From Candidatus Nomurabacteria bacterium (GTDB lineage Bacteria; Patescibacteriota; Minisyncoccia; Phycocordibacterales; UBA10002): a stretch of 64,000 nucleotides of DNA. A program made the translations under genes and the position numbers. Below, piece after piece: positions 36,351 to 60,552 of the stretch. Where the stretch lies: contig CALRDB010000001.1 of NCBI GenBank assembly GCA_943354745.1, forward strand, positions 203-64,202, in the 5' to 3' direction. The first letter of the stretch is position 1; every line of letters begins with the position of its first letter. The notes below the pieces were generated by a model, which saw only the letters and a program-made list of their open reading frames with translations, made no database searches and had not been told where the DNA came from.

Positions 36351-38132
36351 GTGGCACCTTTTTTCAAGAAACATGTAGTAGCGATAGTGTTCGCTTGCGT
36401 AATAGGTGCAATCTACGGACTACCCAACGTCCTATTTGTTCTGTCTTTGGGGGATGTCTATCAAGGTATCCCGATGATGCAAACACCAAATGAAGATGCG
36501 TATTTGGCTCGGATTCAAGAAATTCTCGATGGTCATCCTACGCTCGGTTCACCCTATTTTTTCGAATACAAAGAACAGTGGCCGATTACTCCTCCAACGG
36601 GTGAATTCTTTTACGCGCTTCCTAGTTTGTTGTTCAATCTTTCTACTTCGACCGTTTTGATAGTGAGTAAATTTATTTTACCCGCGATATTATTTTTCTT
36701 AGTTTATTTACTCGTGTTACGTCTTACGGGGGAGGAGGACATATTCAAGAAAAGTAATGCAATTGTGGGCGGTGCATGGGTCGTTCTTGGCTATGACCTC
36801 ATTGATTATCGAACTGTTTTCTCGTATCTCTTGGGGACCATCTCACCTGAATCATTTCTACTCTGGGCGCGGCCGGTTAACCCAATTCTCGGTGCTCTAT
36901 TTTTGTTTTCTTTTTTATTGTTCGTGTTGGCACTTGTCCAAAATACGAAATGGAAAAAGAGCACACTTATTGGGGCGGCCGTTTTTCTCGCACTTATGTT
37001 CGGGAGTTACTTTTTTAGTTGGGGTCTGGCGCTTTCGATTCTCGTCATGCTCGTTGTGATCTGTCTTTTTTCCAGAGAGTATGAGGTTGCGAGGACGCTT
37101 GCGCTCATTGCTCCCTTAGGTGTTTTATTCGCAGCCCCTTATTGGTATGTCGTGTGGCACGCGAGTCAAAGCCCTTGGTACGAAGCGTCGGTGCTTCGAA
37201 GTGGTCTTTTTTTAACGCATTATCCACTTCTCAACAAACTCCTCCTTGTCACCTTTGCGCTCTACCTCACTGTATTGTTTGCTGATCTTTTGTGGAAGCG
37301 AAACAAACATATTGAATATCGCTTCGAGATCTGGCATCGGTTTACGCTCGCTCTTTTGCTTGGAGGTCTATGGGTTTACAGCCAGCAAATGCTGACGGGT
37401 CGGACTCTTTGGCCGTATCATTTCGTCCAATACACCATCCCACTTTCTATGGTGGTCTGCATGGTCTTGCTTTATAACGTTGTACGAAAATGGAGTTATC
37501 TCGTTTGGTCGGCGATGGTTGGTATAATTGCCGTATCGTCCATGTGCTTTGGTGTCTACACACAAGTAAGTACATACAGAGGTTCCTACGCCCGTTACGC
37601 GCACATACAAGGCTATGCACCCTTGTTTGCGTGGCTTAACGAACAAAAGAAAGACTGCGTCGTGCTCCAAATTGACTCTGAGACAGGCATTGGAGGTCTT
37701 GATGTGGCCATCCCCGCCTTTACACATTGTAATTTGTATAATTCAGCAACCGCACCTTCGCTTTTACCAGAGGAACGAATTTGGCATAATTACTTTGTCC
37801 GCCTTTTTATGAACGGGGTTACTCCAGCGACACTTACCTCATATCTAGATGGTCATCTTTCTGAAGAGCGCACGTATCTTTCTTCTAACTGGAAAGGAAT
37901 CTTCGGTGTCAGAGAATTTCCGGACTTTAGTGACCCCTTATTGGCAAAACGGCTCATGATGGTACCCGAAAAATACCGAGAATTTTTCGGGAAAGAAATT
38001 GTAGCAGAGCTCAAAACATATCGTCTCGACTTTATCGTATCTGTTGGTCCTTTGGCGGAAATGGTTAAGAAGCGGTTGCCGGGTGTTACGCTAGTACAAT
38101 CATTTAATGACGTGCTTCTCTATAAGCTTTAA
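36351..38132 (+). CDS. Large polytopic membrane protein (possible GT-C glycosyltransferase or polymerase)
   Basis: It is 593 aa with more than ten transmembrane helices and a C-terminal soluble domain; I see no recognisable catalytic motif. Confidence 0.35.
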   Translation: MAPFFKKHVVAIVFACVIGAIYGLPNVLFVLSLGDVYQGIPMMQTPNEDAYLARIQEILDGHPTLGSPYFFEYKEQWPITPPTGEFFYALPSLLFNLSTSTVLIVSKFILPAILFFLVYLLVLRLTGEEDIFKKSNAIVGGAWVVLGYDLIDYRTVFSYLLGTISPESFLLWARPVNPILGALFLFSFLLFVLALVQNTKWKKSTLIGAAVFLALMFGSYFFSWGLALSILVMLVVICLFSREYEVARTLALIAPLGVLFAAPYWYVVWHASQSPWYEASVLRSGLFLTHYPLLNKLLLVTFALYLTVLFADLLWKRNKHIEYRFEIWHRFTLALLLGGLWVYSQQMLTGRTLWPYHFVQYTIPLSMVVCMVLLYNVVRKWSYLVWSAMVGIIAVSSMCFGVYTQVSTYRGSYARYAHIQGYAPLFAWLNEQKKDCVVLQIDSETGIGGLDVAIPAFTHCNLYNSATAPSLLPEERIWHNYFVRLFMNGVTPATLTSYLDGHLSEERTYLSSNWKGIFGVREFPDFSDPLLAKRLMMVPEKYREFFGKEIVAELKTYRLDFIVSVGPLAEMVKKRLPGVTLVQSFNDVLLYKL

Positions 38133-40710: not shown

Positions 40711-41892
40711 ATGCGTGTCTGCATTATTACAACGAAGTATAACTTCAAGACCTCTGGTGGTTCCGTCGGTGATATTGATTTGCGCGCGCGAGTTCTCACC
40801 AGCCTCGGTCATAAAGTTACGGTCGTCAGTGCGTTTTCAAAATTCAATAGCGACCTTCCCGAGTTTCCCTATCGTTTCCTGGCGGATGAGATTGGAAGCG
40901 CAGGCCTTCTTGGTATACAAATAGGGATATACCGTCTCCTTAAGAAATACGAATACGAGGTAGACATTTTCCATGTGGATGGGCAAGTGTTTCTCTACGG
41001 CGCTGGTCTGTATCGCCTTCTTGGGGGGAAGGCGAAGGTTCTTGGGTTTTTTAATCACTGGCCGAATGCTTGGGCCGATGAGACGGTGGGAGTTACTCAG
41101 AGGATAATTCCGATGTTGCGACCGATTAAGGCGATCAAGAAGCGAGTACGTTTTTTTCTTGAGCGATGGTTTGGGGTCCCCCTTGCCAACTATATGGATG
41201 TTATTATCTACAATACGCCCCCGCTTGCAGCAAAATTCATGAGTTTCGGATTCAAGAAAGGAGATATACTTCCGGACTTTGTTGATACCGAAGGATTGCG
41301 CAAGCAAGAGGATATGGATGTGGAAAAGATTCTCTCCCGGCAAAATCCTTCCGGAGGAATTATCACCTTATTATGTGCCGGTAGGATGTTGCCGGAAAAA
41401 GGGTTTGATATGGTTGTCCGCGCGTTTGCTCAGATTCCTCATAAAGAGAAGTACCGAGTTATTTTAAGTGGTACGGGACCGGAATTCAATTCTCTTAAAA
41501 AACTTATTTCCGACACACATCTTGAGGCGTTCTTTCAGATGCCTGGTTGGGTGGAAAGGAAGACGTTGCTTGGTTTTTTTCGTAAAGCACAAGTTTTCAT
41601 CTTTCCGAATTGGTGGCCGGAGTACGGAGCGATAGTTCTCGAGGAAGCGATGTCGTTCGGTTTGGCTAGCATTATCCCAAGCGGGGGGGCCCTTGAATGG
41701 CTTTCCGGGGGGACCGCCCGTACTTTTAAAAACAGCAGTGTAGATGATCTGGCTCGAGTGATTCAAACCCTCGGAGACAATGTCGGCTTAAGAATTACTA
41801 CAGCCCAAAACGGATTTAAGCACAGTGCCTCACTTGATTATCGGATTCTTGGAGTAAGACTAGAGAAGATACTCCAGTCATCTGTGGCTTAA
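40711..41892 (+). CDS. Glycosyltransferase, GT4 family, with its 3' end clipped by a MITE insertion
   Basis: It has a GT4 N-terminus (MRVCIITTKYNFKTSGGSVGD) and contains a G7 tract at 41683-41689. Its last codon and stop (GCT TAA) are supplied by the terminal repeat of the inserted element. Confidence 0.7.
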   Translation: MRVCIITTKYNFKTSGGSVGDIDLRARVLTSLGHKVTVVSAFSKFNSDLPEFPYRFLADEIGSAGLLGIQIGIYRLLKKYEYEVDIFHVDGQVFLYGAGLYRLLGGKAKVLGFFNHWPNAWADETVGVTQRIIPMLRPIKAIKKRVRFFLERWFGVPLANYMDVIIYNTPPLAAKFMSFGFKKGDILPDFVDTEGLRKQEDMDVEKILSRQNPSGGIITLLCAGRMLPEKGFDMVVRAFAQIPHKEKYRVILSGTGPEFNSLKKLISDTHLEAFFQMPGWVERKTLLGFFRKAQVFIFPNWWPEYGAIVLEEAMSFGLASIIPSGGALEWLSGGTARTFKNSSVDDLARVIQTLGDNVGLRITTAQNGFKHSASLDYRILGVRLEKILQSSVA

Positions 41893-42534: not shown

Positions 42535-44037
42535 CTATAAATATGCTTTTTGCGCAATGAGGTCAGCAAGAGGCTCTAGTTCATGGGCACGCTTTTTGAG
42601 TGTTGAACCACCTTCGATATCCCAGATTTGAACGAGGTCAACGTCGACACTAGCCTTGAACACGGCGGTTAAGTAGTCAGTTAATTCTCTTTCGTTATGG
42701 ATGAATGTTGCTAGATGTTCTTTTATTGTCTCGGCAAGAAATTCTGGCGCGATGCATTTTCGAGCCATCGATAGTTTATTGTAGGGAACATCGCCGAAAG
42801 TGATAACTGGCTTTTTAAATAGGAGTGCTTCCCAGCCGACGCTGCTTGAGATTGTAATAATCAATTTAGCCCGTGCAATCAAATCATAACTGACGACCGT
42901 GGGGGATAGCAGTCTTACGTTGGGAATCTTCTTTAGTTCCTTGTAGTATCTGCGGGATCGTTTCCCGTACATGGTTGGGTGTTCTTTCACACACAACACG
43001 TAATCGATCGGTAGCGACTTGGCGATTTGCCTAGCCAGCCATAGCTGATCGGTATAAAACGGGGCGAAAAGAGCAGTGGAATTTTCGGGTTCAAGTTGAA
43101 GCGGGTAGAATACGAAATTCTGATCCAAAGTAAGGGTGTCGTATAAATCATCAAAACCAATAAATACGCGCACCTTCTGTCTTATTTTATCGATAAAAAA
43201 ATGCCACGGCGTTATTGTACTATAGTCGCCACGTTCGGCGCCGGCCAGGTATTGGTAGGTACTAACAAAAAGCCACTGAATCGAACGCCAGAAATTTCGG
43301 GGCAAAAGAAAGCTAAATTGACGTTTCCTGTTTATGGCTCGAGTGTTGGGCGATTCACCCAACGTATAGGGGAAAGGGCTCTTTCGAAAACGCTGTAAAA
43401 ATTTTTCTGCTTCCTCGCGTTCCTTTGGGAAGTCCATTCCCCGATTTTTTATCTTTTCAAAGAATTCATCCACGTCCGATAACGTTTTGTAGTCGTCAGT
43501 TATCGAATGTTTTGTTCCGATTCGAGTAAGAGTGATGATTTGTATCGGAATGTTCCGCTTTTTGGCGATGCTGTACAGCAGGTAGCTACTTAGCGAACAT
43601 ACAATAGAGAAAATAAGTACATCGGGTTTTTCTTCATCAAGGAACTTGAGCACCGCTTTAGCCGTGCGCTGTAATATTTGTAGCATTTCTTCGTGGGAGT
43701 ATTTCGGTGTATCGTGAGGATATTGGCGCACATGCTGACCGTGGCGGATAATGCGGTCAACTTCAATATGTGGCCACAGGTAGGGAATGCCGTAGTCTTT
43801 TTCCAACTGTTTGAGGAATGCCCAATCGATTATTTCGTCTTTGTAATTTCGCAAAACATCTTCTTCTAAGACGAGTTGTGTGTAAGAAATCTCCTTCTGT
43901 TGATTCAGAAAATCAAAGCTCCGGCGCGTCTGCACGAAACCACAGAATTTTGCGGTTGGATGTTTGTGGTAGATTGAACAGGCGAGTGAGTGCGCGATGA
44001 GTGCAAATCGCCGTTGCATGAAAAAGCAAAGTTTCAT
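42535..44037 (-). CDS. Large GT-B-like 'capsule polysaccharide biosynthesis' family protein with an HP motif (candidate nonulosonate/Kdo-type glycosyltransferase)
   Basis: It is 500 aa with the C-terminal block YVLCVKEHPTMYG...LIITISSSVGWEALLFKKPVITFGDVPYN, and it is paralogous to 56951-58399. Confidence 0.45.
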   Translation of the reverse strand: MKLCFFMQRRFALIAHSLACSIYHKHPTAKFCGFVQTRRSFDFLNQQKEISYTQLVLEEDVLRNYKDEIIDWAFLKQLEKDYGIPYLWPHIEVDRIIRHGQHVRQYPHDTPKYSHEEMLQILQRTAKAVLKFLDEEKPDVLIFSIVCSLSSYLLYSIAKKRNIPIQIITLTRIGTKHSITDDYKTLSDVDEFFEKIKNRGMDFPKEREEAEKFLQRFRKSPFPYTLGESPNTRAINRKRQFSFLLPRNFWRSIQWLFVSTYQYLAGAERGDYSTITPWHFFIDKIRQKVRVFIGFDDLYDTLTLDQNFVFYPLQLEPENSTALFAPFYTDQLWLARQIAKSLPIDYVLCVKEHPTMYGKRSRRYYKELKKIPNVRLLSPTVVSYDLIARAKLIITISSSVGWEALLFKKPVITFGDVPYNKLSMARKCIAPEFLAETIKEHLATFIHNERELTDYLTAVFKASVDVDLVQIWDIEGGSTLKKRAHELEPLADLIAQKAYL

Positions 44038-44167: not shown

Positions 44168-44863
44168 ATGAACAAACATAGTAATTTCCACATAAAGAAA
44201 GATAACGTCTTCGAGGTCAAGGAACTATTCAAGGATATTTCTAAGTTGGTGAAGGTGAAGTACAGGAATAAAACGAGTGAGCTTGATATTTTGGATTTGG
44301 GTTGTGCGTCTGGCGAATTGGCCTACTTCCTCAAAAATGATTTGCAAAGCTCTGGAAAAGTGTGGGGTTTAGACATTTCTCGAGAATTGATAAAAAACGC
44401 CAAACAACGCTTTGGCGGATCTAATGTAAAATTTTTTGCTGCAGACGCTTATAATTTTAAGACCGATGTAAAATTTGATGTGGTGACTATGACATCGGTT
44501 CTTTCTTATTTTGACGATCCTTTCCCAGCTATAAAGAATTTGCTCAATCTTTTAAAAGATGATGGTATCGCTGTAATATCCGGCATCTTTAATCCTTGGA
44601 ATATAGACGTTAAGTTGAACTTTAGGGTTCAAGGTGACACAGGGTGGGAGAATTTTCATCAGTTTTCTCTAAGTCGTATTCAGAAATTTATAACTGATGC
44701 CGGCTACGTCTGTAGGATTTCGGAACAGATTATGCCGTTTGATATTCCAATGAAGGAAAATCTTCTCAGATCCTGGACGGTAAACTTGGACGGTAACAGG
44801 TATATGATGAACGGGCTACAGTTGGCCTACAACATTCGTATACTTCAGATAACAAAAAAATAA
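44168..44863 (+). CDS. Class I SAM-dependent methyltransferase
   Basis: It has ILDLGCASGELA and LKDDGIAVISG motifs. Confidence 0.65.
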   Translation: MNKHSNFHIKKDNVFEVKELFKDISKLVKVKYRNKTSELDILDLGCASGELAYFLKNDLQSSGKVWGLDISRELIKNAKQRFGGSNVKFFAADAYNFKTDVKFDVVTMTSVLSYFDDPFPAIKNLLNLLKDDGIAVISGIFNPWNIDVKLNFRVQGDTGWENFHQFSLSRIQKFITDAGYVCRISEQIMPFDIPMKENLLRSWTVNLDGNRYMMNGLQLAYNIRILQITKK

Positions 44864-44875
44864 GAGAATATTTCT

Positions 44876-45424
44876 ATGTTTTTAAAAGAATGTATACAGC
44901 GGATTCGCTTTTGGCGTCGAGCTGACCGTATTGGTCCAGACATGCCGTGGACACACTGGCGACTCTTTTTTCCTTCAAGGATGAAGAATCTTTGTCAGAA
45001 AAGATTTCGTCACTTTGACCCGACTGCTGAAATACGCCCTGGTTCCTACATCCTCGCTTGTTCCAAGATAAGTATCGGTAAGCGCGTAGTTGTTCGTCCT
45101 GGCAGTGTATTTGAGGCCGATCCGCGAGAAGGTGAACACGGGATCACTATTGAGGATGATGTGCTTCTTTCTCCCGGAGTACACCTCTATGTGAATGACC
45201 ATGCGTTTGAAGATACAAGTATGCCAATCTTTGACCAAGATCATAAGCCATCTAAACCGATTACGATCAAACGAGGTTCGTGGATTGGTGCCAATGCTAT
45301 TATTTTGGCGGGAGTGACGATTGGAGAGAACAGTGTTGTGGGGGCGGGGAGTATCGTTACTAAAAATGTACCGCCTCGCGTTGTAGTGGCGGGTAGCCCC
45401 GCCAAGATTATACGTGTTCTGTAG
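44876..45424 (+). CDS. Hexapeptide-repeat (LbH) acetyltransferase
   Basis: It has left-handed beta-helix repeats (ITIKRGSWIGANAIILAGVTIGENSVVGAGSIVTKNV). Confidence 0.7.
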   Translation: MFLKECIQRIRFWRRADRIGPDMPWTHWRLFFPSRMKNLCQKRFRHFDPTAEIRPGSYILACSKISIGKRVVVRPGSVFEADPREGEHGITIEDDVLLSPGVHLYVNDHAFEDTSMPIFDQDHKPSKPITIKRGSWIGANAIILAGVTIGENSVVGAGSIVTKNVPPRVVVAGSPAKIIRVL

Positions 45425-45447
45425 TCTTCATCCTTTCTCGTTATCCA

Positions 45448-46209
45448 ATGAAAGATATCCGAATCATTCCACTTCTGCACATCAAGAGCGAGAACGTCGT
45501 TAAACCCGTGCATACCGAAGCTCTTCGGGTCGTGGGTTCTCCGAAGTCACTCTCGACACGCTATTACGCGGAAGGCGCCGACGAGCTCATTTATCTTGAT
45601 GTTGTCGCCAGTTTGTACCAGAGGAATTTTGATTTTGAGCTTTTGCGCAGTGTGACCGAGAATATATTTATTCCCGTGACAGTCGGTGGAGGCATCCGCT
45701 CAATTACCGATATAAACAATGCCTTGCGAGCCGGCGCGGATAAGGTGGCTATCAATACATACGCTGTACGCCACCCTGTCTTTCTTAAAGAAGCGGCAAA
45801 AGAATTCGGATCTCAATGCATAACGCTGTTCATCGAAGCAAAGCAACGTCCAGATGGTTCTTATGAAGTGTACACCGACGGTGGACGTGAGTGGACCGGT
45901 AGTGACGCAATCGAGTGGGCGAAGCAGGCGATCGATCTCGGAGTCGGTGAGATTCTTATATCCTCCATCGACCGCGACGGAACGAAGCGCGGGTATGACG
46001 TAGAACTGATACGAAAAATAAGTACATTTGCCCCCATCCCCATCATTGCTCACGGTGGAGCCGGTACCAGCGAATCGATACGTGAAGTGATCTGTGAAGG
46101 AAAAGCGGACGCAGTAGCCGTTTCCTCGGTGTTTCACTACGGAGAACTCTCAATCCAGAATGTAAAACGATATTTGGTCGAACGGGGGATTGCGACAAGA
46201 GAAATATAG
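45448..46209 (+). CDS. HisF-like cyclase subunit (WbuZ-type, glycan acetamidino formation)
   Basis: It is a (beta/alpha)8 HisF homologue (IPVTVGGGIRS...IIAHGGAGTSESI) located in a glycan cluster beside a HisH-like gene and a WbuX-like amidotransferase. Confidence 0.7.
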   Translation: MKDIRIIPLLHIKSENVVKPVHTEALRVVGSPKSLSTRYYAEGADELIYLDVVASLYQRNFDFELLRSVTENIFIPVTVGGGIRSITDINNALRAGADKVAINTYAVRHPVFLKEAAKEFGSQCITLFIEAKQRPDGSYEVYTDGGREWTGSDAIEWAKQAIDLGVGEILISSIDRDGTKRGYDVELIRKISTFAPIPIIAHGGAGTSESIREVICEGKADAVAVSSVFHYGELSIQNVKRYLVERGIATREI

Positions 46210-46282
46210 ATATTGTTTTCTGCTGATTCGCGCACTTAGATTTCACGATTATTCAAGAAGCGGAAGAAAGTAAATACACAAC

Positions 46283-46918
46283 ATGAATCACCGAATAGTC
46301 ATCATTGATTACGGAGTCGGCAATCTTTTCAGTTTGCAACGGGCCTTTCGCGCCGTTTCGGGTGAGGCTCTGATCGCGAGTGATGTTGATACGATATACT
46401 CTGCGGACGCGCTGGTCCTTCCGGGGGTCGGGTCATTTGAAGCGGGTATGCGGGGACTGCGGCTCCGCGGGCTGATTGATGTTGTTAAAAATGCCGCTAC
46501 GAAGGGCACGCCTATACTCGGTATTTGTCTGGGCGCTCAACTGCTTCTTTCTGAGGGACATGAGTTCGGTGTGCATCAAGGACTCGATATTATTCCTGGG
46601 AAAGTACTTAAGTTTGAAGGACTGACGCAAAATGAAAAAATCCCGCATGTCGGTTGGAATAACATCTCCCCGCCTGAGGAAGTAACGTGGAAGGGGACTG
46701 TGTTAGATCTCGTCGAGAAGGCTTCCAAAGTGTATTTCGTACACTCATATATCTTGGCACCGAGAAACAAAGAACATACATTCGGGTTAACAACTTACGG
46801 TGGTAAAGAGTTCTGCTCGATAGTCAAGAAAGGTAAGATAATTGGGGTGCAGTTTCATCCTGAGAAAAGCGGAGAAACAGGACTGCGAATCATTAAAAAT
46901 TTTGTTTCAGCCTTGTAA
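46283..46918 (+). CDS. HisH-like glutamine amidotransferase subunit (WbuY-type)
   Basis: It is a class I glutamine amidotransferase with PILGICLGAQLL, HVGWN and VHSY motifs. Confidence 0.7.
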   Translation: MNHRIVIIDYGVGNLFSLQRAFRAVSGEALIASDVDTIYSADALVLPGVGSFEAGMRGLRLRGLIDVVKNAATKGTPILGICLGAQLLLSEGHEFGVHQGLDIIPGKVLKFEGLTQNEKIPHVGWNNISPPEEVTWKGTVLDLVEKASKVYFVHSYILAPRNKEHTFGLTTYGGKEFCSIVKKGKIIGVQFHPEKSGETGLRIIKNFVSAL

Positions 46919-46954
46919 TAAGTCGACCGGCTTTGGAGTTATAATGGATGCCAT

Positions 46955-48139
46955 ATGGTCGTTAAATTAGATAAACAACTTGGTGTACAACCGAAGGAGG
47001 TAACTTTTTGTACTCGGTGTGTTGTATCAAACCAGAGACCCCGCACTGTGTTTGATGCCGAGGGAGTTTGTAGTGCATGCAGATATGTGGAGCAAAAACG
47101 TAGCCATATTGATTGGGAGAAACGGGAGCGGGAACTTCAGGCACTTTGTGACAAACATCGCTCAACAAATGGAGATTTCGACGTGATTGTGCCGTCGAGC
47201 GGCGGGAAGGATAGTGGATACACGGCCCATCTCCTTAAGGAGAAATATGGTATGCACCCGCTCTGTGTTACGTGGGCACCGTTTATCTACACCGATATCG
47301 GCTGGAAGAATTTTCAGGATTTCGTGAAATCTGGATTTACGGTAATAAATTGCTTTCCAAACGGTGTCGTGCATCGAAAACTCGCGCGTGTCGCCTTTGA
47401 ACAAAAAGGAGACGCGTGGGATCCGTTTACTTTCGGGCAGAAAGCGTACGCGTTTCATGTCGCGCTTAAATGGAAAATCCCGCTCATTTTTTACGGAGAA
47501 AATGGGGAAGTGGAATATGGCGGTTCGATGCAAAATGCCACTAAACCGTTTGAATCAGTTTCGGATTGGGAAGCACTCTACTTCAAAGGTTCCGGAATCG
47601 ATACACTGCTCAAAACCGGGGTTGACATGAACATTTTGTCAAAGGATGAAGCTAACGATCCTGTACTTAATCTGTACCGCCCTCCCGCGCTCCGCGATAT
47701 CGAACAGCTTGGAGCCGAAATGCATTGGCTTTCGTATTACCGAAACTGGATACCGCAAGAGAATTTCTATTACGCGCAGAAACACACCGGTTTTACGGTG
47801 AATGAGGACGGCCGTTCAGAGGGTACCTATTCAAAGTACGCTAGCTTGGACGACAAAACGGACGGATTCCATTTTTATCTCGGTTTTATAAAATTCGGCC
47901 TGGGACGAGCAACAAGAGACGCTATGATGGAAATTCGTTCGGGGCATATCACAAGAGAGGAAGGGGTCGCGCTCGTGCGTCGTTTCGACGGCGAGTTTCC
48001 CAAGAAATATCTTAAGGATTTTTTGGAGTACCTCGGTATTACCGAGAAACATTTCTGGGAAGTTGTGGACTCGTACCGTCCTCCTCATCTATGGGAAAAG
48101 ATCAATGGCGAATGGAAGCTTAAATATCAAGTAACATAA
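46955..48139 (+). CDS. N-acetyl sugar amidotransferase (PP-loop ATPase, WbuX/WbpG family)
   Basis: It has an N-terminal Cys cluster (CTRC...CSAC) and a PP-loop (VPSSGGKDSGY). Confidence 0.7.
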   Translation: MVVKLDKQLGVQPKEVTFCTRCVVSNQRPRTVFDAEGVCSACRYVEQKRSHIDWEKRERELQALCDKHRSTNGDFDVIVPSSGGKDSGYTAHLLKEKYGMHPLCVTWAPFIYTDIGWKNFQDFVKSGFTVINCFPNGVVHRKLARVAFEQKGDAWDPFTFGQKAYAFHVALKWKIPLIFYGENGEVEYGGSMQNATKPFESVSDWEALYFKGSGIDTLLKTGVDMNILSKDEANDPVLNLYRPPALRDIEQLGAEMHWLSYYRNWIPQENFYYAQKHTGFTVNEDGRSEGTYSKYASLDDKTDGFHFYLGFIKFGLGRATRDAMMEIRSGHITREEGVALVRRFDGEFPKKYLKDFLEYLGITEKHFWEVVDSYRPPHLWEKINGEWKLKYQVT

Positions 48140-48142
48140 TAT

Positions 48143-48856
48143 ATGAACGTCCTTGCGTATATTCCAGCCCGTGGCGGGTCCAAACGAATCCCGAATAAAA
48201 ACATTCGAGATTTTTGCGGCAAGCCACTTATCGCCTACGCTATCGAGCAAGGCAAGGCGCACCCGCGCGTCGACCGCGTGATAGTCGATACGGACGATGA
48301 GGAAATCGCCACTGTCGCAAAAAAATATCAAGCCGACGTCCCGTTTTTGCGTCCCAAAGAACTTGCCACCGATACCGCACAGGCGTCCGACGCGCTTCTG
48401 TATCTTTTGGAACGGCTGAAAAAGGATGAAGGATATGAGCCGACGCATATTCTGCTCTTGCAAACCACCTCGCCCCTTCGTGAAATGCGCGATATCGACG
48501 CCTGCTTCGAAATGATGGATAAAACGAATGCCGCGACGGTGCTTACGGTCGCCTCAACCCACCCCCGCATCTATTTCCTTGATTCCGAAAACCGCCTTAT
48601 TCTCGCCAATAAAGAGATACACGATTCAAGCAACATGCAGGCGTGGCCGAAAGGGTATCTCCTCAACGGCTGTTTTGTGTATATCATTACGGTTTCGGCG
48701 TTCCTACAAAATAAGAAAATCCTTGCGGACGATACCCGCGGAGTCGTTTGCGATAGGTGGCGCTCGGTGGACCTCGACGAACCGGAAGACTTTGTACTCG
48801 CAGAACTTTTGTATAAGCACAAGAAAGAAATAGAAGCTAACATAAAAAAAATATGA
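48143..48856 (+). CDS. Acylneuraminate cytidylyltransferase family (CMP-nonulosonate synthetase, NeuA/LegF-like)
   Basis: It has YIPARGGSKRIPNKN and a downstream QTTSPLR motif. Confidence 0.75.
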   Translation: MNVLAYIPARGGSKRIPNKNIRDFCGKPLIAYAIEQGKAHPRVDRVIVDTDDEEIATVAKKYQADVPFLRPKELATDTAQASDALLYLLERLKKDEGYEPTHILLLQTTSPLREMRDIDACFEMMDKTNAATVLTVASTHPRIYFLDSENRLILANKEIHDSSNMQAWPKGYLLNGCFVYIITVSAFLQNKKILADDTRGVVCDRWRSVDLDEPEDFVLAELLYKHKKEIEANIKKI

Positions 48857-49824
48857 GGTTTTTTGTCGTCGGCTTAGGCTCGATGGGGAAACGGCGTGTC
48901 CGCAACCTTCAGGCAAACGGTGAAAAAGATATCACCGGTTTTGATATTCGTCCCGACCGTATCGCGGAAGCGAAAGAAAAGTACGGCATCAAAACGGTAG
49001 ACGCACTCGCGGACATGCCTCCGAGTGATTTTGATGCATTGATTATTTCCGTGTCTCCCGATGTGCACGGAGACTACATCCGGTATGCGCTGAAACACAA
49101 AAAACACTTCTTTGTGGAGCACCCGACCAGTGACGATGGCTACAAGGAAGTCATCGCGGACAGGAGCGCCATCGTAAAGGCGCCATCGTGCACGTTCCTA
49201 TTCAACCCCGCTATAAAAATAATGAAGCAGATTCTAGAGAAGGGAACGATAGGAAAAGTGCTCGCGTTTCAATATCATATGGGACAGTATCTTCCCGATT
49301 GGCATCCGTGGGAAGATTACCGCGACGTCTATTTTTCTAAAAAAGAAACAAGCGCGTGTCGTGAAATGTTTTGTTTCGAACTTATCTGGCTCAATTCGCT
49401 TATTGGCGCGCAGGTGAAGGAGGTACGTGGCACCATCACGAAACTGACTGACCTCGACATGGATGCCGATGACACCGTCACGGCGACCCTTCTCTACGAG
49501 AACAACGTGCATGGCACTCTACTCATCGATGTCATATCACGAAAACCTTTTCGCACGCTCCGCACCCTCGGTTCCGAAGGGGTGCTTGAGTGGGAGAGGT
49601 TTGACTACGCGCTTAAAGTTTTTAACGTGGGCACCAAAAAAACCGAGGTTATTCCCATTCCCAAAGGCAATCCCGAAAAAGGCTATGTGAACGAAGAGGA
49701 GATGTATGTCGATGAGATTAAGGCATTTTTGGACGCAATCAAAGAGCGGAGGATATACCCATATTCATTCGAGGAAAACCTAAGAAAACTGGTACTGCTT
49801 GAAAACCTCAAAAAGCAGTCCTAG
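48853..49824 (+). CDS. Gfo/Idh/MocA-family oxidoreductase
   Basis: It has a Rossmann-fold start (FFVVGLGSMGKRRV) and a GFOR C-terminal domain. Confidence 0.65.
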   Translation: MRFFVVGLGSMGKRRVRNLQANGEKDITGFDIRPDRIAEAKEKYGIKTVDALADMPPSDFDALIISVSPDVHGDYIRYALKHKKHFFVEHPTSDDGYKEVIADRSAIVKAPSCTFLFNPAIKIMKQILEKGTIGKVLAFQYHMGQYLPDWHPWEDYRDVYFSKKETSACREMFCFELIWLNSLIGAQVKEVRGTITKLTDLDMDADDTVTATLLYENNVHGTLLIDVISRKPFRTLRTLGSEGVLEWERFDYALKVFNVGTKKTEVIPIPKGNPEKGYVNEEEMYVDEIKAFLDAIKERRIYPYSFEENLRKLVLLENLKKQS

Positions 49825-49860
49825 AACTAAGAGTGCCTCTTTCGGGTTATCAAAGGTATC

Positions 49861-50928
49861 ATGAAAAGAAATATCCTTAGCATTGGTAATAAAATTGTCG
49901 GAACAGGACACCCTGTGTTTATTATTGCCGAGGCTGGGGTGAACCATAACGGGAAACTCTCGCTTGCAAAAAAACTTATTGATGCCGCCGTAAAGGCTGG
50001 CGCTGATGCCGTAAAGTTTCAGACCTTCGACCCCGATACGCTTGTGACCAAGGGGGCTTCGAAGGCAACCTATCAGGATAAGAACGAAGAAACAGAGGGT
50101 GCAGGAGAAACCCAATACGCGATGCTGAGGCGCCTCATGCTCAAACGCGAGTATCATCCTGAACTCAAAAAATACGCGGAGCAAAAAGGCATTATGTTCC
50201 TCTCCACGCCGTTCTCGCTCTCCGACGCGGAGTTTTTGCGGGACCTCGGCATCGTGGCACTCAAAGTCGGTTCAAGTGATACGAACAATATCCCGTACCT
50301 TCGCACTATCGCGAAGTGGAAGCTCCCGATTATTCTTTCGACCGGCATGTCGGATTTACCCCTTCTTCACGAATCGATTACAGCGATACGGAAAGCGGGG
50401 AATAATGACCTTATTGTTCTGCACTGTACCACCAATTATCCTACGCCTATCCAAGAAGTGAATTTGCGAGCAATGCAAACGCTCGAACAAGAACTCAACG
50501 TTACTGTCGGATTTTCCGACCACACGGAAGGTATCGTTGCTCCGGTTCTTTCTGTCGCTCTGGGTGCGTCGATGATCGAAAAGCACCTGACGCTCGACAA
50601 GACCATGCCGGGACCAGATCATAAAGCTTCGCTTGACCCGAAAGGGTTTAAGGAAATGGTTACTGTTGTTCGCGATGCAGAGCAGGCACTGGGTACGGGG
50701 AAAAAGAATCTCTTTGCAAGTGAAATGGAAATAGCCAAAGTTGCTCGCAAGAGTTTGGTGACTTTGCGTCCGGTCAAAAAAGGTGAGAAGTTCACCGAAA
50801 AGAATCTTACTGTCAAACGTCCGGGGACTGGACTCCCTCCAAGAGATTTTGACAAGGTCATCGGTACAAGAGCAACAAAGGATATTAAGGCAGACTGCCT
50901 TCTCATTGTTCATGATTACTCCGCTTAA
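49861..50928 (+). CDS. neuB: N-acylneuraminate-9-phosphate/nonulosonate synthase (NeuB/LegI family)
   Basis: It has an N-terminal TIM barrel (FIIAEAGVNHNG, KFQTF) and a C-terminal SAF/antifreeze-like domain. Confidence 0.8.
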   Translation: MKRNILSIGNKIVGTGHPVFIIAEAGVNHNGKLSLAKKLIDAAVKAGADAVKFQTFDPDTLVTKGASKATYQDKNEETEGAGETQYAMLRRLMLKREYHPELKKYAEQKGIMFLSTPFSLSDAEFLRDLGIVALKVGSSDTNNIPYLRTIAKWKLPIILSTGMSDLPLLHESITAIRKAGNNDLIVLHCTTNYPTPIQEVNLRAMQTLEQELNVTVGFSDHTEGIVAPVLSVALGASMIEKHLTLDKTMPGPDHKASLDPKGFKEMVTVVRDAEQALGTGKKNLFASEMEIAKVARKSLVTLRPVKKGEKFTEKNLTVKRPGTGLPPRDFDKVIGTRATKDIKADCLLIVHDYSA

Positions 50929-52066
50929 GAAAATAGCATACATTTCCGGAACCCGAGCCGACTTTGGTCTAATGACCCCGGTGCTTCAGGTCATCGAAAA
51001 AAGAGAGAAGCACTCGCTTCAGGTCTACGCAACCGGCATGCATCTTATGCCACTCTTTGGGGAAACGATACACGAAGTTAGGAAACTATTTCCGAATGTA
51101 AGGCGTATCGAAGGAGTTTTTGAAAGTGATGAACGCGCCGGTATGGCGCGATTCGCCGGCGCGTTTCTCCCTAATGTCGTGGAAGCTCTGATTACCGAAA
51201 GGCCGGATTTTGTACTGATTTTGGGTGATCGAATAGAAATGCTCGTCGTTGCCGTTGCTTGTTTGTATCTAAGTATTCCCACCGGGCATCTTCATGGCGG
51301 GGAACGGACCGCCACCGTTGATGATGTGGCGCGTCACGCTATTTCAAAACTAGTCTCTTTGCATTTGACGACCACGGAGGATTCCGCAAAACGCCTGCGG
51401 AACATGGGGGAGGAAGAGTGGCGCATTCACATTGTCGGAGCTCCCGCCTTAGATACGATACGTCTTGCGACGCTTCCCACACGGAAAGAATTATGTGAAA
51501 GATTAAAACTTGATTCATCTAAACCTTTTATTTTACTTGTGCAGCATGCAGTAAGCGACGAGACGAAAAAAGTGGGGGAGCAGATACTGGAAACACTCGC
51601 CGCGGTAAAGTCGTTTTCACTACCGGTTGTCGCGATATATCCAAATGCCGATTCCGGTGGCATGCGAATTATCGCTGAAATCGAGAAGGAGAGAGGGAAT
51701 CCGCTCTTTTCCATTTTTCCGAACATATCACATACCGATTTCCTCGCGCTTGAACGCGAGGCGGCAGTTTGGGTCGGAAATTCAAGTGGGGCACTTATCG
51801 AATCATCTTCTTTCGGAACTCCCGTCGTTAACGTGGGAACACGGCAGAAGGGAAGAGTCCGTGGAGAAAACGTCATTGATGCCGGCTACAATAAAATAGA
51901 AATACAAAACGCTATCCAGAAATCTCTACATGACGAGAACTATAGACGGTATCTCAAGACTATTTCGAATCCCTGGGGCGACGGGCATACCGGTGAAAAG
52001 GTGGCCAACATACTTGGGAATCTTGAAGAACCGGCAAAGCTTTTATCGAAACAAATAGCGTATTGA
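50912..52066 (+). CDS. neuC: UDP-N-acetylglucosamine 2-epimerase (hydrolysing), NeuC/LegG family
   Basis: It has KIAYISGTRADFGLM, HLHGGER and NSSG motifs. I place the start at MITPLKK, giving a 17-bp overlap with neuB. Confidence 0.75.
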   Translation: MITPLKKIAYISGTRADFGLMTPVLQVIEKREKHSLQVYATGMHLMPLFGETIHEVRKLFPNVRRIEGVFESDERAGMARFAGAFLPNVVEALITERPDFVLILGDRIEMLVVAVACLYLSIPTGHLHGGERTATVDDVARHAISKLVSLHLTTTEDSAKRLRNMGEEEWRIHIVGAPALDTIRLATLPTRKELCERLKLDSSKPFILLVQHAVSDETKKVGEQILETLAAVKSFSLPVVAIYPNADSGGMRIIAEIEKERGNPLFSIFPNISHTDFLALEREAAVWVGNSSGALIESSSFGTPVVNVGTRQKGRVRGENVIDAGYNKIEIQNAIQKSLHDENYRRYLKTISNPWGDGHTGEKVANILGNLEEPAKLLSKQIAY

Positions 52067-52085
52067 TACTGTTATAGTAAGCACA

Positions 52086-52901
52086 ATGAACGGTGGTGAA
52101 CAAAAGAAAATACGGCGGGCAATCTTGCTCGGAAGGAAAGAAGGAGCAGCGGACGCTCTCTCTTTTTTGCTTGAGCAAGGTGTTACTGTTCCTTTAGTTG
52201 TTGCACAGAAAGATGAGCTAGTGGGACGTTCTCTCGCTAAAGAAGCCCAACGGAGACACATTCCGGTTTTCGGAAATACTCACGACGTCTACGCGCTCTT
52301 AGAAAAAAACGATCCGCTGGTGCAAGACATTGATCTCGTCATCTCTTTTCTATTTTGGCAGAAGATACGGGAGCCCGTCATTAAACTCGGGAAACAGGGG
52401 TGTATTAATTTCCACCCCGCCCCGCTACCTGACTATAAAGGAAGAGCAGGGTATAATACGGCGGTTCTTGATTGTCGGAAAACATTCGGAGTGAGTGCTC
52501 ACTTCATTGATGCCGAAGAATTTGATACTGGTCCGATTATCGAGGTCTTGACATTCCCGCTCGACACTAACTTAGCAACGGCGCTTTCGCTGGAACGGGA
52601 ATCGCAAAAACATCTTCTCTCACTTTTCAAGAAGGTACTAAATCGCTTCATAATGGGTTTGACAATACTGACCACACCTAACATCGGTGGATTGTATCTC
52701 AACAGCGTTGAGCTTGAAGCACTGAAACAAATTGATCCAGAGAATGATTCTGCGGAAGAAGTCGAAAGAAAAATACGGGCGTTCTTCTTCCCTCCGCATC
52801 ACGGAGCGAAGATTACAATTCAAGGGAAGTCCTTCACTCTAATTGATGAGAAAATATTGAAATGGTTAGCGGACATACTTGCGAAGCGTACTGATGTATA
52901 A
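52086..52901 (+). CDS. Sugar N-formyltransferase-like (formyl_trans_N family)
   Basis: It has INFHPAPLPDYKGRAG, which matches the formyltransferase HxSLLPxxRG motif, followed by FIDAEEFDTGPII with the catalytic Asp region. Confidence 0.6.
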   Translation: MNGGEQKKIRRAILLGRKEGAADALSFLLEQGVTVPLVVAQKDELVGRSLAKEAQRRHIPVFGNTHDVYALLEKNDPLVQDIDLVISFLFWQKIREPVIKLGKQGCINFHPAPLPDYKGRAGYNTAVLDCRKTFGVSAHFIDAEEFDTGPIIEVLTFPLDTNLATALSLERESQKHLLSLFKKVLNRFIMGLTILTTPNIGGLYLNSVELEALKQIDPENDSAEEVERKIRAFFFPPHHGAKITIQGKSFTLIDEKILKWLADILAKRTDV

Positions 52902-52915
52902 AATCACTTTTTTCA

Positions 52916-54043
52916 ATGAAACAGTACCCTCTCGCAAAACCTCATATCGGTAAAAAAGAAGAACGTGCGGTACTCGAAGTACTGCGTTCGGGTGTCTTAA
53001 GTATGGGTCCAAAAGTAGAAGCTTTTGAAAAACGTTTTGCTCGTTTTGTCGGCACTAAGTATGCCGTTGCTGTTTCAAGCGGAACTGCCGGCCTTCATCT
53101 AGCCCTTATTGGCGCAAATATCGGTCATGGCGACGAAGTGATTACCACTCCCTTTTCCTTTATTGCTTCTGCAAACGCTATTTTATATGTTGGTGCAAGA
53201 CCGGTATTTGTCGACGTCGATCCCGTGACCTATAACATGGATCCGAAAAATATTGAAGCAGCCATTACTTCAAAGACAAAAGCGATACTCGTTGTGCATA
53301 TTCTTGGGCAGGCAGCTTCAATGAACGCGATATGTGCCATTGCCCGAAAACATAACTTAAAAATCGTCGAGGATGCCTGCGAAAGCATAGGCGCCACCTA
53401 TAAGGTTGGAAAAAAGCTAGAGCAGACAGTTGGGACTTTTGGAGAGTCAGCGGTCTTCGCCTTTTATCCCAATAAGCAGATGACAACAGGGGAAGGTGGT
53501 ATGATAGTGACGAACGACCAGAAGCTCGACGCTCTCTTTCGAAGTTTGCGAAATCAGGGGCGTTCGGCCGATATGAACTGGCTGGAACACCAGCGACTTG
53601 GTTACAATTATCGTCTTGATGAAATGAGTGCCGCACTCGGACTTGTACAGCTCCAAAATATAGAGACGTGTATTCGTGAACGGCAGAAAATTGCAACGTG
53701 GTATCAAGAGTTTTTGTCTCCATACTCAGCGTGTGTCACACCCCCGGCAACCGCCGCTGAAAATACGCATACCTGGTTCGTGTACACAGTTCTCCTTCCG
53801 AAAGATGTTTCGCGCGAAAAAGTGATGAAGCGGCTTGAAGCGGAAGGCATTGCCACTAAACCGTATCTCCCTTCTATACATCTTTTCAGTTTTTATCGAG
53901 AGCAATTCGGCTTTTCCCCAGGTAACTTCCCGGTCTCCGAATTAGTTAGTAATAGGGCATTGGCGTTACCGCTCTATATCGGCCTCAAGAAGACTGAGAT
54001 AGCTTTTATTGTGAAAAAATTAATCACCTGTATTTCTAAGTAA
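52916..54043 (+). CDS. DegT/DnrJ/EryC1/StrS-family aminotransferase (sugar 4-aminotransferase, LegC/PglE-like)
   Basis: It has AVAVSSGTAGLHLAL and PLP-lysine region motifs. Confidence 0.8.
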   Translation: MKQYPLAKPHIGKKEERAVLEVLRSGVLSMGPKVEAFEKRFARFVGTKYAVAVSSGTAGLHLALIGANIGHGDEVITTPFSFIASANAILYVGARPVFVDVDPVTYNMDPKNIEAAITSKTKAILVVHILGQAASMNAICAIARKHNLKIVEDACESIGATYKVGKKLEQTVGTFGESAVFAFYPNKQMTTGEGGMIVTNDQKLDALFRSLRNQGRSADMNWLEHQRLGYNYRLDEMSAALGLVQLQNIETCIRERQKIATWYQEFLSPYSACVTPPATAAENTHTWFVYTVLLPKDVSREKVMKRLEAEGIATKPYLPSIHLFSFYREQFGFSPGNFPVSELVSNRALALPLYIGLKKTEIAFIVKKLITCISK

Positions 54044-54055
54044 TCTTTTATCTCA

Positions 54056-55102
54056 ATGGGTGCCGCATTTAAAGGTAAAAATATATTGGTAACCGGTGGT
54101 ACCGGATCAATCGGTTCGGAAATCGTCCGACAGATCTTGCCGCATAAGCCAAAAACTATCAGGGTCTTTGCTCGTCACGAAGATCGCCATTTTCAACTTA
54201 TGCAAGAGTGGGCCGGACATGAGGGTGTTATCCGCTTTATCGTGGGTGATATCAGAGACAAAGAACGGTTGGCGCTGGCCATGGAGGGTATAGATATTGT
54301 GTTCCATGCGGCTGCGCTCAAACATGTTCCGCTGTGCGAATATAATCCGTTTGAAGCCGTCAAAACAAATATTATCGGAACACAAAACGTGATTGAAACG
54401 GCTCGGAGTGCGCAGGTAAAGCAAGTCATTGGCATTTCGACCGATAAGGTAGCAGAACCGGAAAGTGTCCTCGGTGTCTCCAAGCTCATGGCAGAGAAAT
54501 TATTTTTAGCCACCTACTTTTACAAGGGCAATACGCATACAAAGTTCACCTGTGTTCGGTTTGGTAACGTGTTAGGAAGCCGCGGTAGTATTCTTTCGCT
54601 CATTAAGTCGCATGTGGTCAATGGTACGCCTGTTCCGGTAACTGATCCGGCCATGACTCGTTTCTTTATGACGATCCCCGAGGCGGTGAAATTGGTTCTT
54701 GACGCCTCGCTTCTCGGTAAGGGACAAGAAGTGTTTGTGCTTAAAATGTCTGCTGCGCGTCTCGGCGATGTGGTTAAGGCCGCTCTTTCTTACTACGCCC
54801 CTCTTGTCGGTAAAAAACCTGATGATATCCCCACCACGATTATCGGAAGACGAAAAGGAGAGAAAATGCATGAAAAGATGCTAGCGGATTATGAAATCTC
54901 AACAGCGCTCGAAACTGAGACAATGTACATCCTCACTCCTCAAGGAAATGCGTTTTCCGAATATACTACGACGTACGCGGCCTCCCCAGTGCATATTTCA
55001 AAGAAAAGTTTTTCCTCAGAATTTGCCACCAAGCTTTCTGTACAGGAATTGCGGTCTCGAATTGAAAAGGCAGACATGGATCAGGCGAAAGAATCCCATT
55101 AA
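54056..55102 (+). CDS. UDP-GlcNAc 4,6-dehydratase, Polysacc_synt_2 family (PseB/PglF/CapD-like)
   Basis: It has ILVTGGTGSIGSE, FVGDIRD, HAAALKHVP and STDKV motifs. Confidence 0.75.
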   Translation: MGAAFKGKNILVTGGTGSIGSEIVRQILPHKPKTIRVFARHEDRHFQLMQEWAGHEGVIRFIVGDIRDKERLALAMEGIDIVFHAAALKHVPLCEYNPFEAVKTNIIGTQNVIETARSAQVKQVIGISTDKVAEPESVLGVSKLMAEKLFLATYFYKGNTHTKFTCVRFGNVLGSRGSILSLIKSHVVNGTPVPVTDPAMTRFFMTIPEAVKLVLDASLLGKGQEVFVLKMSAARLGDVVKAALSYYAPLVGKKPDDIPTTIIGRRKGEKMHEKMLADYEISTALETETMYILTPQGNAFSEYTTTYAASPVHISKKSFSSEFATKLSVQELRSRIEKADMDQAKESH

Positions 55103-60546: not shown

Positions 60547-60552
60547 GAGGAT

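Follow-up and report, generated by a model that had tools for sequence, protein, structure and literature searches.

Two PF05159 proteins beside nonulosonate modules of a Candidatus Nomurabacteria contig are candidate nonulosonate transferases

The proteins encoded by two genes, here called A and B, in a 64,000-nucleotide stretch of Candidatus Nomurabacteria DNA (the window) are candidate transferases that most likely attach nonulosonates to cell-surface glycans. With a probability of roughly 0.7, both are cytoplasmic transferases of the KpsC/KpsS/WbbB kind that use the CMP-nonulosonates made by two adjacent pathways. The first-pass annotation of this DNA had put them forward as nonulosonate transferases, and this proposal is supported by their PF05159 and KpsC matches and by a linkage to nonulosonate genes that is conserved across many patescibacterial loci. 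The rule that a PF05159 protein encoded beside a nonulosonate module is a transferase has been published, and KpsS1 has been proven to be one; A and B are therefore read as CMP-nonulosonate transferases. Since the rule is already in the literature, the idea itself is not new, and the novelty is confined to the present branch.

Gene A (42535..44037, minus strand; 500 aa) and gene B (56951..58399, plus strand; 482 aa) are real and complete ORFs, as they had been called initially. A contains a PF05159 match over its C-terminal domain, and B has the same C-terminal motifs and fold. The homology of the two proteins is well above chance, with 25% identity across 299 residues in BLASTP (E 6e-23) and a probability of 100% in an hhalign comparison of the A-family and B-family alignments (E 3.3e-40; 349 columns, A 132–499 and B 118–478). 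The original description, in which the two proteins aligned convincingly only in the C-terminal block, was too narrow, as the last beta-alpha-beta unit of the N-terminal domain and the C-terminal helices are also alignable; only the first ~120–130 residues and the helical middle align poorly. B is an ancient paralogue of A. Promoter and terminator scans around A gave counts no higher than the shuffled expectation.

Both proteins scored above the gathering threshold of PF05159 (Capsule_synth), the Pfam family against which the first-pass annotation had suggested checking them (41.9 bits for A and 42.0 bits for B; gathering score 20), and the profile was matched by 30/30 A-family and 30/31 B-family members. 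The match is restricted to the C-terminal domain (profile positions ~144–268 of 310). KpsC, also named beforehand for comparison, was the only PDB sequence match of either protein (E 4e-6 for A and 7e-8 for B; E 2e-9 in a profile search). The AF2 models (pLDDT 88.4 for A and 89.7 for B; pTM 0.88 each) adopt the modified GT-B fold of KpsC and WbbB, and Foldseek searches of the PDB returned generic GT-B matches only. E. coli CFT073 sequences were used as the KpsC and KpsS references and also stood in for KpsS1. The alignment of A with a profile of KpsC-N, KpsC-C, and KpsS had a probability of 97.6% (hhalign, E 4.6e-12, 114 columns), and the alignable region comprised 76 columns for KpsC-N and 88 columns for KpsS (26% identity, probability 92%). 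Similarity to GT107 (KpsC/KpsS) does not extend over the whole catalytic module, and the N-terminal domain is not alignable. An early suggestion of kinship with the GT52/GT80 sialyltransferases found no link in these searches, in which GT52, GT80, GT38, and GT42 provided neither a family HMM match nor the closest fold match for A or B. The scores for NF046086 were 33.3 bits for A and 15.2 bits for B, from the C-terminal block only (cut-off 200 bits).

The hhalign alignment pairs Q314, E318, and H353 of A with Q156, D160, and H194 of KpsC, in which Asp160 is the nucleophile and His194-Pro forms the CMP-phosphate/general-acid site (PMC10148158). The QLEPE motif of A (Q314-L-E-P-E318; 43084..43098, minus strand) is thereby aligned to QXXXD of KpsC/KpsS, and its counterpart in B is N-Y-Q290-P-E292 (57812..57826, plus strand). 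The VKEHP motif, V-K-E-H353-P354 in A (42976..42990, minus strand) and V-K-E-H327-P328 in the translation of B (57920..57934, plus strand), aligns with K-V-H194-P of KpsC, a motif characteristic of GT107. In contrast to GT107, in which QXXXD provides a nucleophilic Asp, the position of A E318 is occupied by Glu in A, in B, and in all homologues inspected (all 240 of the close homologues and all 136 of the wider representatives). The Q-P-E of the B motif is invariant across the B family, and the Gln position of QXXXD is variable (Q/H in the A family; H/N/Q/S in the B family). Glu318/292, Arg360/342, and Tyr365/347 (A/B numbering) are invariant or nearly so, and a G..EA....KPVI.FG block is found in both proteins. 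The VKEHP His is retained in 228 of the 240 close homologues (~95%) and in 105 of the 136 wider representatives, and is replaced by Asn in 21 of the latter. The His-Pro pair on which the first proposal was built is thus present in A, in B, and in most homologues, and its general absence from homologues, which had been named as grounds for giving up the assignment, was not observed. However, the His is less conserved than had been assumed; the strictly invariant residue lies outside the pair and is the Glu that occupies the site of the nucleophilic Asp in KpsC. In the B family, a further acidic residue (E/D) is found at B156, at the end of a strand where KpsC has Glu66 (a placement by visual comparison of the sequences and the predicted strand, not by alignment), and the aligned position of the A family is variable. 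As a guess, B156 might act as a general base from the N-terminal domain.

The window contains two nonulosonate modules. The first, of NeuB/NeuC type (legionaminic-like; 44168..55102, plus strand), is divergent from A and encodes a methyltransferase, a hexapeptide acetyltransferase, WbuZ/HisF, HisH, a WbuX amidotransferase, a cytidylyltransferase (48143–48856), a Gfo/Idh oxidoreductase, a NeuB-type synthase (49861–50928; above cut-off), a NeuC-type epimerase (50912–52066), a formyltransferase, an aminotransferase, and a 4,6-dehydratase. A fused TMD-NBD ABC exporter (MsbA/PglK/HepA-like; 55110..56891, plus strand) ends 59 bp upstream of B, and the second, pseudaminic-type module (58409..64000, plus strand) begins 9 bp after B. 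It comprises PseB, PseC, a small GIY-YIG ORF, a Gfo/Idh oxidoreductase, a class-III aminotransferase, and a cytidylyltransferase+DUF218 fusion (63142–64000, plus strand) that is cut by the window end; beyond this point, the parent contig encodes a PseH-PseI fusion and a Wzy_C+TPR protein. PseB, PseC, and PseI (445, 495, and 410 bits) all exceed their equivalog cut-offs, and the second cytidylyltransferase scored best against KdsB-type models, though below cut-off. A is adjoined by a GT4 glycosyltransferase (40711..41892, plus strand). A polytopic membrane protein of 593 aa with ~9 hydrophobic segments and no Pfam/NCBIfam match is encoded at 36351..38132 (plus strand), and many further glycosyltransferases are present in the same island. 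The NeuB-type, NeuC-type, and two cytidylyltransferase genes reported at first were all recovered, together with PseB and PseC. In agreement with the earlier statement that the locus has no recognisable sialyltransferase or Maf-type transferase, no Pfam family of either kind matched any gene of the window (39182–48856 was covered by an NCBIfam scan only).

The linkage to nonulosonate genes recurs in other loci. Of 35 full-flank A loci, 26 have a nonulosonate synthase or cytidylyltransferase no more than 10 kb away, and of 24 full-flank B loci, 19 have a nonulosonate synthase in this range, which leaves nine A loci and five B loci with no nonulosonate gene there. Nonulosonate genes are the neighbour common to both families; the other A- or B-specific neighbours differ. 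The gene most often found directly next to an A-family gene encodes a GT4, which is present in 45/80 A-anchored loci (in many cases at a distance below 100 bp) vs 1/80 B-anchored loci. Homologues of the 36351..38132 membrane protein are present in 23/35 A-anchored loci of at least 20 kb vs 0/21 B-anchored ones, which makes it a possible membrane partner for module A. In one Giovannonibacteria contig, the order Leg-module, ABC, B, Pse-module is repeated, and in a Harrisonbacteria contig, an ABC exporter occurs together with a tandem pair of PF05159 genes and with two synthases accompanied by cytidylyltransferases. DUF218, as a domain or as a gene, is repeatedly found adjoining the cytidylyltransferase. 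We also considered an inversion of A to the minus strand by an adjacent IS256 fragment, which was rejected: in locus L169 of a Giovannonibacteria contig, A is likewise divergent from HisF-HisH-WbuX-cytidylyltransferase-Gfo, with no IS called nearby. The first-pass annotation had put the two proteins forward for transfer of the legionaminic-type and pseudaminic-type sugars. A one-to-one correspondence, with A serving the Leg-type and B the Pse-type sugar, was dropped after synthases had been typed across loci, as both families adjoin both types (NeuB-type 17 and PseI-type 5 among the 35 A loci; 13 and 7 among the 24 B loci). Neither family tracks one synthase type, and therefore no sugar specificity can be assigned to A or B.

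The same neighbourhoods bear on an unlikely alternative, in which A and B are polymerases or a KpsS/KpsC-like initiator/extender pair, one of them adding the first nonulosonate (or another ulosonate) to a lipid (e.g. phosphatidylglycerol) and the other extending it, so that the product would be a glycolipid primer or a homopolymer for ABC export rather than two heteroglycan caps. Such a division of labour exists among their relatives, as KpsS primes and KpsC extends the ABC-exported poly-Kdo linker (PMC12887879, PMC10148158). It also agrees with the indifference of A and B to the Leg-type or Pse-type synthase, with the constant proximity of an ABC exporter to B-like genes (no more than 10 kb away in 24/24 full-flank loci and no more than 500 bp away in 47/80 loci), and with the tandem PF05159 pairs that adjoin the exporter in several loci. 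However, A (with GT4 and the membrane protein) and B (with the ABC exporter) mostly belong to separate modules, and only 3/35 and 4/24 loci contain both of them within 10 kb. The exporter is of the fused MsbA/PglK type and not of the KpsMT type, and the many glycosyltransferases of the island suggest a heteroglycan.

It is very unlikely that A and B share the fold but use another donor (CMP-Kdo, or a CDP-polyol phosphate in the manner of TagB/TagF), with the nonulosonate linkage reflecting mere co-location in the island. A match to CDP-glycerol glycerophosphotransferases, named at the outset as an outcome that would overturn the assignment, did not materialize: PF04464 (TagB/TagF; gathering 22.1) remained below cut-off for A (18.6 bits), gave no match for B, and was matched by 1/30 members of the A family and 0/31 of the B family. 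Genes for the synthesis of CDP-glycerol or CDP-ribitol were absent from the window, as was a Kdo-8-P synthase (KdsA) from the window and the downstream 6.5 kb, where the synthases are NeuB-type and PseI, confirmed above cut-off; the nonulosonate genes shared by both neighbourhoods also speak against co-location alone. Least probable of all is that A and/or B are GT-B nucleotide-sugar hydrolases or epimerases, with B, for example, as the missing PseG-like UDP-sugar hydrolase, given that Epimerase_2 (PF02350, UDP-GlcNAc 2-epimerase/NeuC; gathering 30.6 bits) was below cut-off for A and had 0 B-family matches, that KpsC is the sole sequence match and the motifs of the CMP site can be aligned, that B-like genes also lie beside NeuB/NeuC-type modules, where PseG is not needed, and are most tightly linked to the exporter rather than to PseB/C, and that the DUF218 beside the cytidylyltransferase offers an alternative PseG substitute.

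Several observations weigh against A and B as CMP-nonulosonate transferases: the short alignable stretch with KpsC/KpsS, the Glu in place of the nucleophilic Asp, the variable Gln, the Asn that replaces the His in some representatives, the generic Foldseek matches, the loci with no nonulosonate gene in range, and the KdsB-type best score of the second cytidylyltransferase. For A and B as such transferases, the aligned motifs and gene order suggest the following scheme. The donors would be CMP-nonulosonates from the NeuB/NeuC legionaminic-like and PseB/C/I pseudaminic-type pathways. The CMP-sugar would be held by the C-terminal Rossmann domain, and the leaving CMP phosphate would be protonated by the K-E-H-P histidine. 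The invariant ..P-E glutamate (A E318, B E292), at the site of the nucleophilic Asp of KpsC, may form a covalent sugar-enzyme intermediate in a retaining reaction, or may be a catalytic carboxylate that acts otherwise. Acceptor choice would be set by the divergent N-terminal domains. B would probably act on a lipid-linked glycan that is moved over the membrane by the adjacent ABC exporter, and A would work with GT4 and the conserved polytopic membrane protein as a second assembly module. Patescibacteria are generally held to be without an outer membrane. A more specific version, which we consider possible but doubtful, is that A and B represent one or two new glycosyltransferase families, found almost only in Patescibacteria, in which Glu replaces the Asp nucleophile found in every known KpsC/WbbB/KrkA-type enzyme and which transfer Leg-/Pse-type sugars. 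An argument against the broader assignment as well, made in PMC12887879, is that Kdo-like retaining transferases may not readily take legionaminic acid, sialic acid, or other sugars whose C5 substituent is equatorial. If this version were true, the KpsC-type fold would handle C5-equatorial nonulosonates after all, and the nonulosonate of the B module could be a cap or primer that licenses ABC export. A WbbB/KpsS-like logic would then operate in ultra-small bacteria, and sialic-acid-like surfaces would be common in the lineage.

The A and B families together comprise 4,808 cluster representatives (50% identity) at E ≤ 1e-30, and all homologues with a taxon-level name are from Patescibacteria. 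Searches of one paper collection for CPR with pseudaminic or nonulosonic acids gave no match, and those for Patescibacteria with legionaminic acid gave an unrelated mention only. No characterised member of either family was found, in line with the earlier impression that these proteins are poorly characterised; they are nevertheless recognisable as PF05159. Transfer of Leg and Pse is the least known step in bacterial sialic-acid-like glycosylation, with a handful of transferases assigned and KpsS1 the one PF05159-type nonulosonate transferase proven so far. The A/B branch is very large, has an altered active-site carboxylate, and is linked to patescibacterial nonulosonate pathways. If the assignment is correct, it would provide new enzymes toward Leg/Pse glycoconjugates and a test of KpsC-type double-displacement chemistry on nine-carbon sugars with a Glu nucleophile. 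It would also point to sialic-acid-like surfaces on many ultra-small episymbiotic bacteria.

When A and B are compared with characterised systems, the closest functional precedent is KpsS1 of A. baumannii (relatives KpsS2 and Gtr59), which also combines PF05159 with a neighbouring nonulosonate module. Acinetobacter PF05159 proteins next to such modules (Gtr59/KpsS1) have been assigned as transferases (PMC4487303), and KpsS1, as cited in PMC12887879, is a biochemically proven retaining Pse5Ac7Ac pseudaminyltransferase that defines GT118 and reportedly shares ~30% identity with E. coli KpsS. The GT118-like adjacency is reproduced here, as B lies 9 bp before PseB-PseC with PseI downstream and A lies beside the NeuB/NeuC-type module. 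However, A/B do not reach this level of KpsS identity (26% over 88 columns against E. coli KpsS as proxy), and KpsS1 acts in proteobacterial Wzy-dependent capsule units, whereas the host of A/B is a Patescibacterium. KpsC and KpsS (GT107, PF05159), the retaining beta-Kdo transferases of group 2/3 capsules, can be aligned with A/B over ~75–125 residues. They have the Asp nucleophile in QXXXD, use CMP-Kdo, and work with KpsMT, whereas A/B (~500 aa) have Glu at that site with a non-conserved Gln, different N-terminal domains, no Kdo pathway nearby but NeuB-type and PseI synthases instead, and, beside B, the fused exporter. The WbbB N-terminal domain (GT99) and KrkA (GT140) are also retaining beta-Kdo transferases having QXXXD with Asp, and their similarity to A/B was not significant (WbbB, E 0.087 against the A profile). 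The Tannerella forsythia enzymes Tanf_01245/TFUB4_00887/BFO_1060 (NF046086) transfer Pse or Leg derivatives in protein O-glycosylation, share the HP block, and are described as TagB-like with DXD and D/E-D/E-G motifs (PMC5420450). Like A and B, they adjoin a CMP-Pse or CMP-Leg locus and carry the HP motif.

A (500 aa; 42535–44037, minus strand) and B (482 aa; 56951–58399, plus strand) are both encoded by complete ORFs, and their paralogy is real. The two proteins share 25% identity over 299 residues (BLASTP, E 6e-23), and a family alignment built for A (30 homologues) matched the one for B (31 homologues) with an hhalign probability of 100% (E 3.3e-40), residues 132–499 of A being placed on residues 118–478 of B. 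The first-pass annotation had proposed this relationship but regarded only a C-terminal block as alignable; the family match shows that homology reaches well past that block, and only the first ~120–130 residues and a helical middle part are poorly comparable.

Both proteins exceed the gathering score of 20 for the Pfam model PF05159 (Capsule_synth), with 41.9 bits for A and 42.0 bits for B. The match is confined to the C-terminal domain, and the model is passed by 30/30 A-family and 30/31 B-family members. The assignment that was named as speaking against a transferase of this kind, CDP-glycerol glycerophosphotransferase (PF04464), stayed below cut-off and was found in 1 of the 30 A-family members. 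None of the NCBIfam models claims A or B above cut-off; the top match, which reaches 33 bits where the cut-off is 200, is the BFO_1060 family of Tannerella transferases of Pse/Leg derivatives (PMC5420450). Sequence matches in the PDB were to KpsC chains only. The AlphaFold models are confident, with pLDDT values of 88.4 and 89.7 (pTM 0.88 for both), and Foldseek returned generic GT-B matches only.

To compare active sites, KpsS and the N- and C-terminal domains of KpsC, all from E. coli CFT073, were aligned and used as references. The joint alignment of A and B matched this alignment with an hhalign probability of 97.6% (E 4.6e-12, 114 columns), pairing Q314, E318 and H353 of A with Q156, D160 and H194 of KpsC. 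The nucleophile of KpsC is Asp160, which belongs to the invariant QXXXD motif and becomes covalently linked to Kdo; Glu66 serves as base, and the CMP phosphate receives a proton from the histidine of the HP motif (PMC10148158). The position of the KpsC aspartate is occupied in A and B by a glutamate that follows a proline (QLEPE in A, NYQPE in B), and this glutamate is kept without exception by all 240 close homologues and all 136 wider representatives, while the glutamine of the equivalent motif varies. The HP pair, which the first pass had relied on as a hallmark, does occur in each protein as VKEHP; its histidine, however, is kept in 228/240 close homologues and 105/136 wider representatives (Asn in 21), so the glutamate is the more constrained feature. 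The strand end at the KpsC Glu66 site, which was placed by eye, is acidic in 109/120 B-family proteins, and the A family has no such conservation.

The families of A and B are both large. Word-index searches yielded hundreds of 40–62% identical proteins of 470–510 aa, all annotated as hypothetical, and every homologue with a taxon-level name was from Patescibacteria/Parcubacteria. In an exhaustive profile search, 13,400 cluster representatives scored E ≤ 1e-3, and 4,808 of them E ≤ 1e-30. The 80 best A-family genome loci are all from MAGs, mostly labelled Patescibacteria. Some third-party (TPA_asm) loci, e.g. L005, L006, L009 and L027, are titled 'uncultured Gammaproteobacteria' or 'Saccharibacteria'; these titles are probably placeholders, because gene content and best matches resemble Parcubacteria loci. 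For MurB, encoded on the parent contig, all named best matches are from Parcubacteria/Patescibacteria, which points to a patescibacterial origin of the window.

The entire 64-kb window is a glycan island, with glycan synthesis genes filling nearly all of it (1–64000), almost all on one strand; if the genome has the small size of about 1 Mb that is typical of Patescibacteria, the island takes up a large share of it. Its glycosyltransferases include at least five GT4, three GT2, a GT47-like gene and two PMT_2/ArnT-like membrane transferases. About 10 SAM methyltransferases, an AsnB-like amidotransferase, Gmd, UDP-glucose dehydrogenases and heptose-nucleotide genes (GHMP kinase, nucleotidyltransferase, HAD phosphatase and SIS isomerase) are also present. 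A PKD/lamin-tail ORF at 14–889 (plus strand; its true 5′ end may precede the window) probably encodes a surface protein, which might itself be glycosylated. Two small ORFs are a 219-aa one without a family match (19478–20137, minus strand) and a 126-aa one (40318–40698, plus strand) with a sub-threshold WbuC-type cupin match (31 bits, cut-off 42). Mobile-element remnants comprise an IS200-like Y1 transposase (~34200–34650, plus strand), a C-terminal fragment of an IS256-family transposase (Zn-binding variant) between GT4 and A (41909–42370, minus strand), and an 82-aa GIY-YIG ORF between PseC and the next gene (60553–60801, plus strand), a second one lying past the window.

Divergent from A is a NeuB/NeuC-type module (44168–55102) with methyltransferase, acetyltransferase, a WbuZ/HisH/WbuX amidotransferase set, cytidylyltransferase, Gfo oxidoreductase, NeuB-type synthase (444 bits, cut-off 400), NeuC-type epimerase, formyltransferase, aminotransferase and dehydratase. 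A fused ABC exporter (55110–56891) separates this module from B, which is followed by PseB and PseC (both above equivalog cut-offs), an oxidoreductase, a class-III aminotransferase and a cytidylyltransferase–DUF218 fusion. The contig extends past the window and there encodes a PseH–PseI fusion (PseI 410 bits, cut-off 340) and, directly after it and ~2.1 kb beyond the window, a 729-aa Wzy_C (O-antigen ligase/O-oligosaccharyltransferase-like) and TPR protein (16672–18861 of parent contig L085), a candidate for the last step, in which the exported glycan would be attached to protein or cell wall.

To compare neighbourhoods, the window proteins were searched against two sets of 80 loci, genome loci anchored on A and metagenome loci anchored on B, and neighbours were counted, unless stated otherwise, within 10 kb in full-flank loci (A, n = 35; B, n = 24). 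A nonulosonate synthase is found in 21/35 A-anchored and 19/24 B-anchored loci, and a synthase or cytidylyltransferase in 26/35 A-anchored loci. An ABC exporter is present in 10/35 and 24/24, respectively, and within 500 bp of the B-like gene in 47/80 loci; GT4 is present in 21/35 and 1/24, and across all A-anchored loci in 45/80, often <100 bp away. Nonulosonate genes are thus common to both families and the remaining partners are family-specific, the B family being tied almost obligately to a fused MsbA/PglK-type exporter. In several loci, a tandem pair of B-like genes adjoins the exporter. A 593-aa polytopic ORF (36351–38132, plus strand), whose product has about nine hydrophobic stretches and is soluble in its C-terminal part, matches no Pfam or NCBIfam model; homologues (25–56% identity) lie within 10 kb in 32/80 A-family and 1/80 B-anchored loci, and in 23/35 and 0/21 loci of at least 20 kb. 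As a possible partner of A, this protein may act as a membrane glycosyltransferase, polymerase or ligase of an unrecognised type. Gene order is strikingly conserved: one Giovannonibacteria contig shares the window order (Leg-type module, ABC, B, Pse-type module), a second has A divergent from HisF-HisH-WbuX-cytidylyltransferase-Gfo with GT4 on the opposite side, and in a Harrisonbacteria contig ABC is accompanied by two tandem PF05159 genes and by two synthases with cytidylyltransferases. Across the compared loci, the two families did not sort cleanly by sugar, with A beside Leg-type and B beside Pse-type pathways.

The evidence best supports A and B as glycosyltransferases of the KpsC/KpsS/WbbB kind that use CMP-nonulosonates, and so supports the first-pass interpretation as a candidate function. 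Family-model searches of the locus found no Kdo-8-P synthase, Maf or sialyltransferase families, as the first pass had stated for the latter two. Under this reading, the donor and acceptors, the stereochemistry and the parts played by Glu and His in catalysis are all inferred. Each protein would work on the cytoplasmic side of the membrane, in an assembly module of its own: B would modify a lipid-linked glycan that is then passed to the ABC exporter, and A would work alongside GT4 and the polytopic membrane protein. The role proposed for B has parallels in ABC-dependent pathways, where WbbB acts in capping and KpsS/KpsC in priming; a less well-supported possibility is that A and B are themselves a KpsS/KpsC-like initiator/extender pair, or polymerases. 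It is less likely still that A and B have the fold of these enzymes but use another donor. A hydrolase or epimerase, e.g. a PseG substitute, is a further unlikely alternative, the Epimerase_2 match being sub-cut-off and not found in the B family. The pseudaminic-type modules carry no recognisable PseG. DUF218 is fused to or beside cytidylyltransferase in the window (63142–64000; 13733–15073 of the parent contig L085) and in several Patescibacteria loci (L167, 19009–19641; L168, 17237–17905; L170, 2107–2703), and may substitute for the UDP-sugar hydrolase step.

In the literature searched, nothing joined CPR with pseudaminic or nonulosonic acids, and Patescibacteria and legionaminic acid appeared together only in one unrelated paper. 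In Acinetobacter and other bacteria, the PF05159 proteins Gtr59, KpsS1 and KpsS2, whose genes lie beside nonulosonate modules, have been assigned as the transferases (PMC4487303). Since this rule is already published, A and B are not a new kind. KpsS1 is cited in PMC12887879 as a retaining pseudaminyltransferase that defines GT118. The likeness of A and B to GT118, with E. coli KpsS standing in for KpsS1, covers 88 columns and is as narrow as that to GT107, which is restricted to ~75–125 residues. A and B fail the family-defining tests of GT107 both through this narrow similarity and through a Glu at the nucleophile position, where GT107 has Asp. Neither family has a characterised member, and they would probably be given a family number of their own. 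Kdo-like retaining transferases, it has been suggested, may not adapt to C5-equatorial sugars (PMC12887879); if A or B transfers a legionaminic-type sugar, it would be a counter-example.
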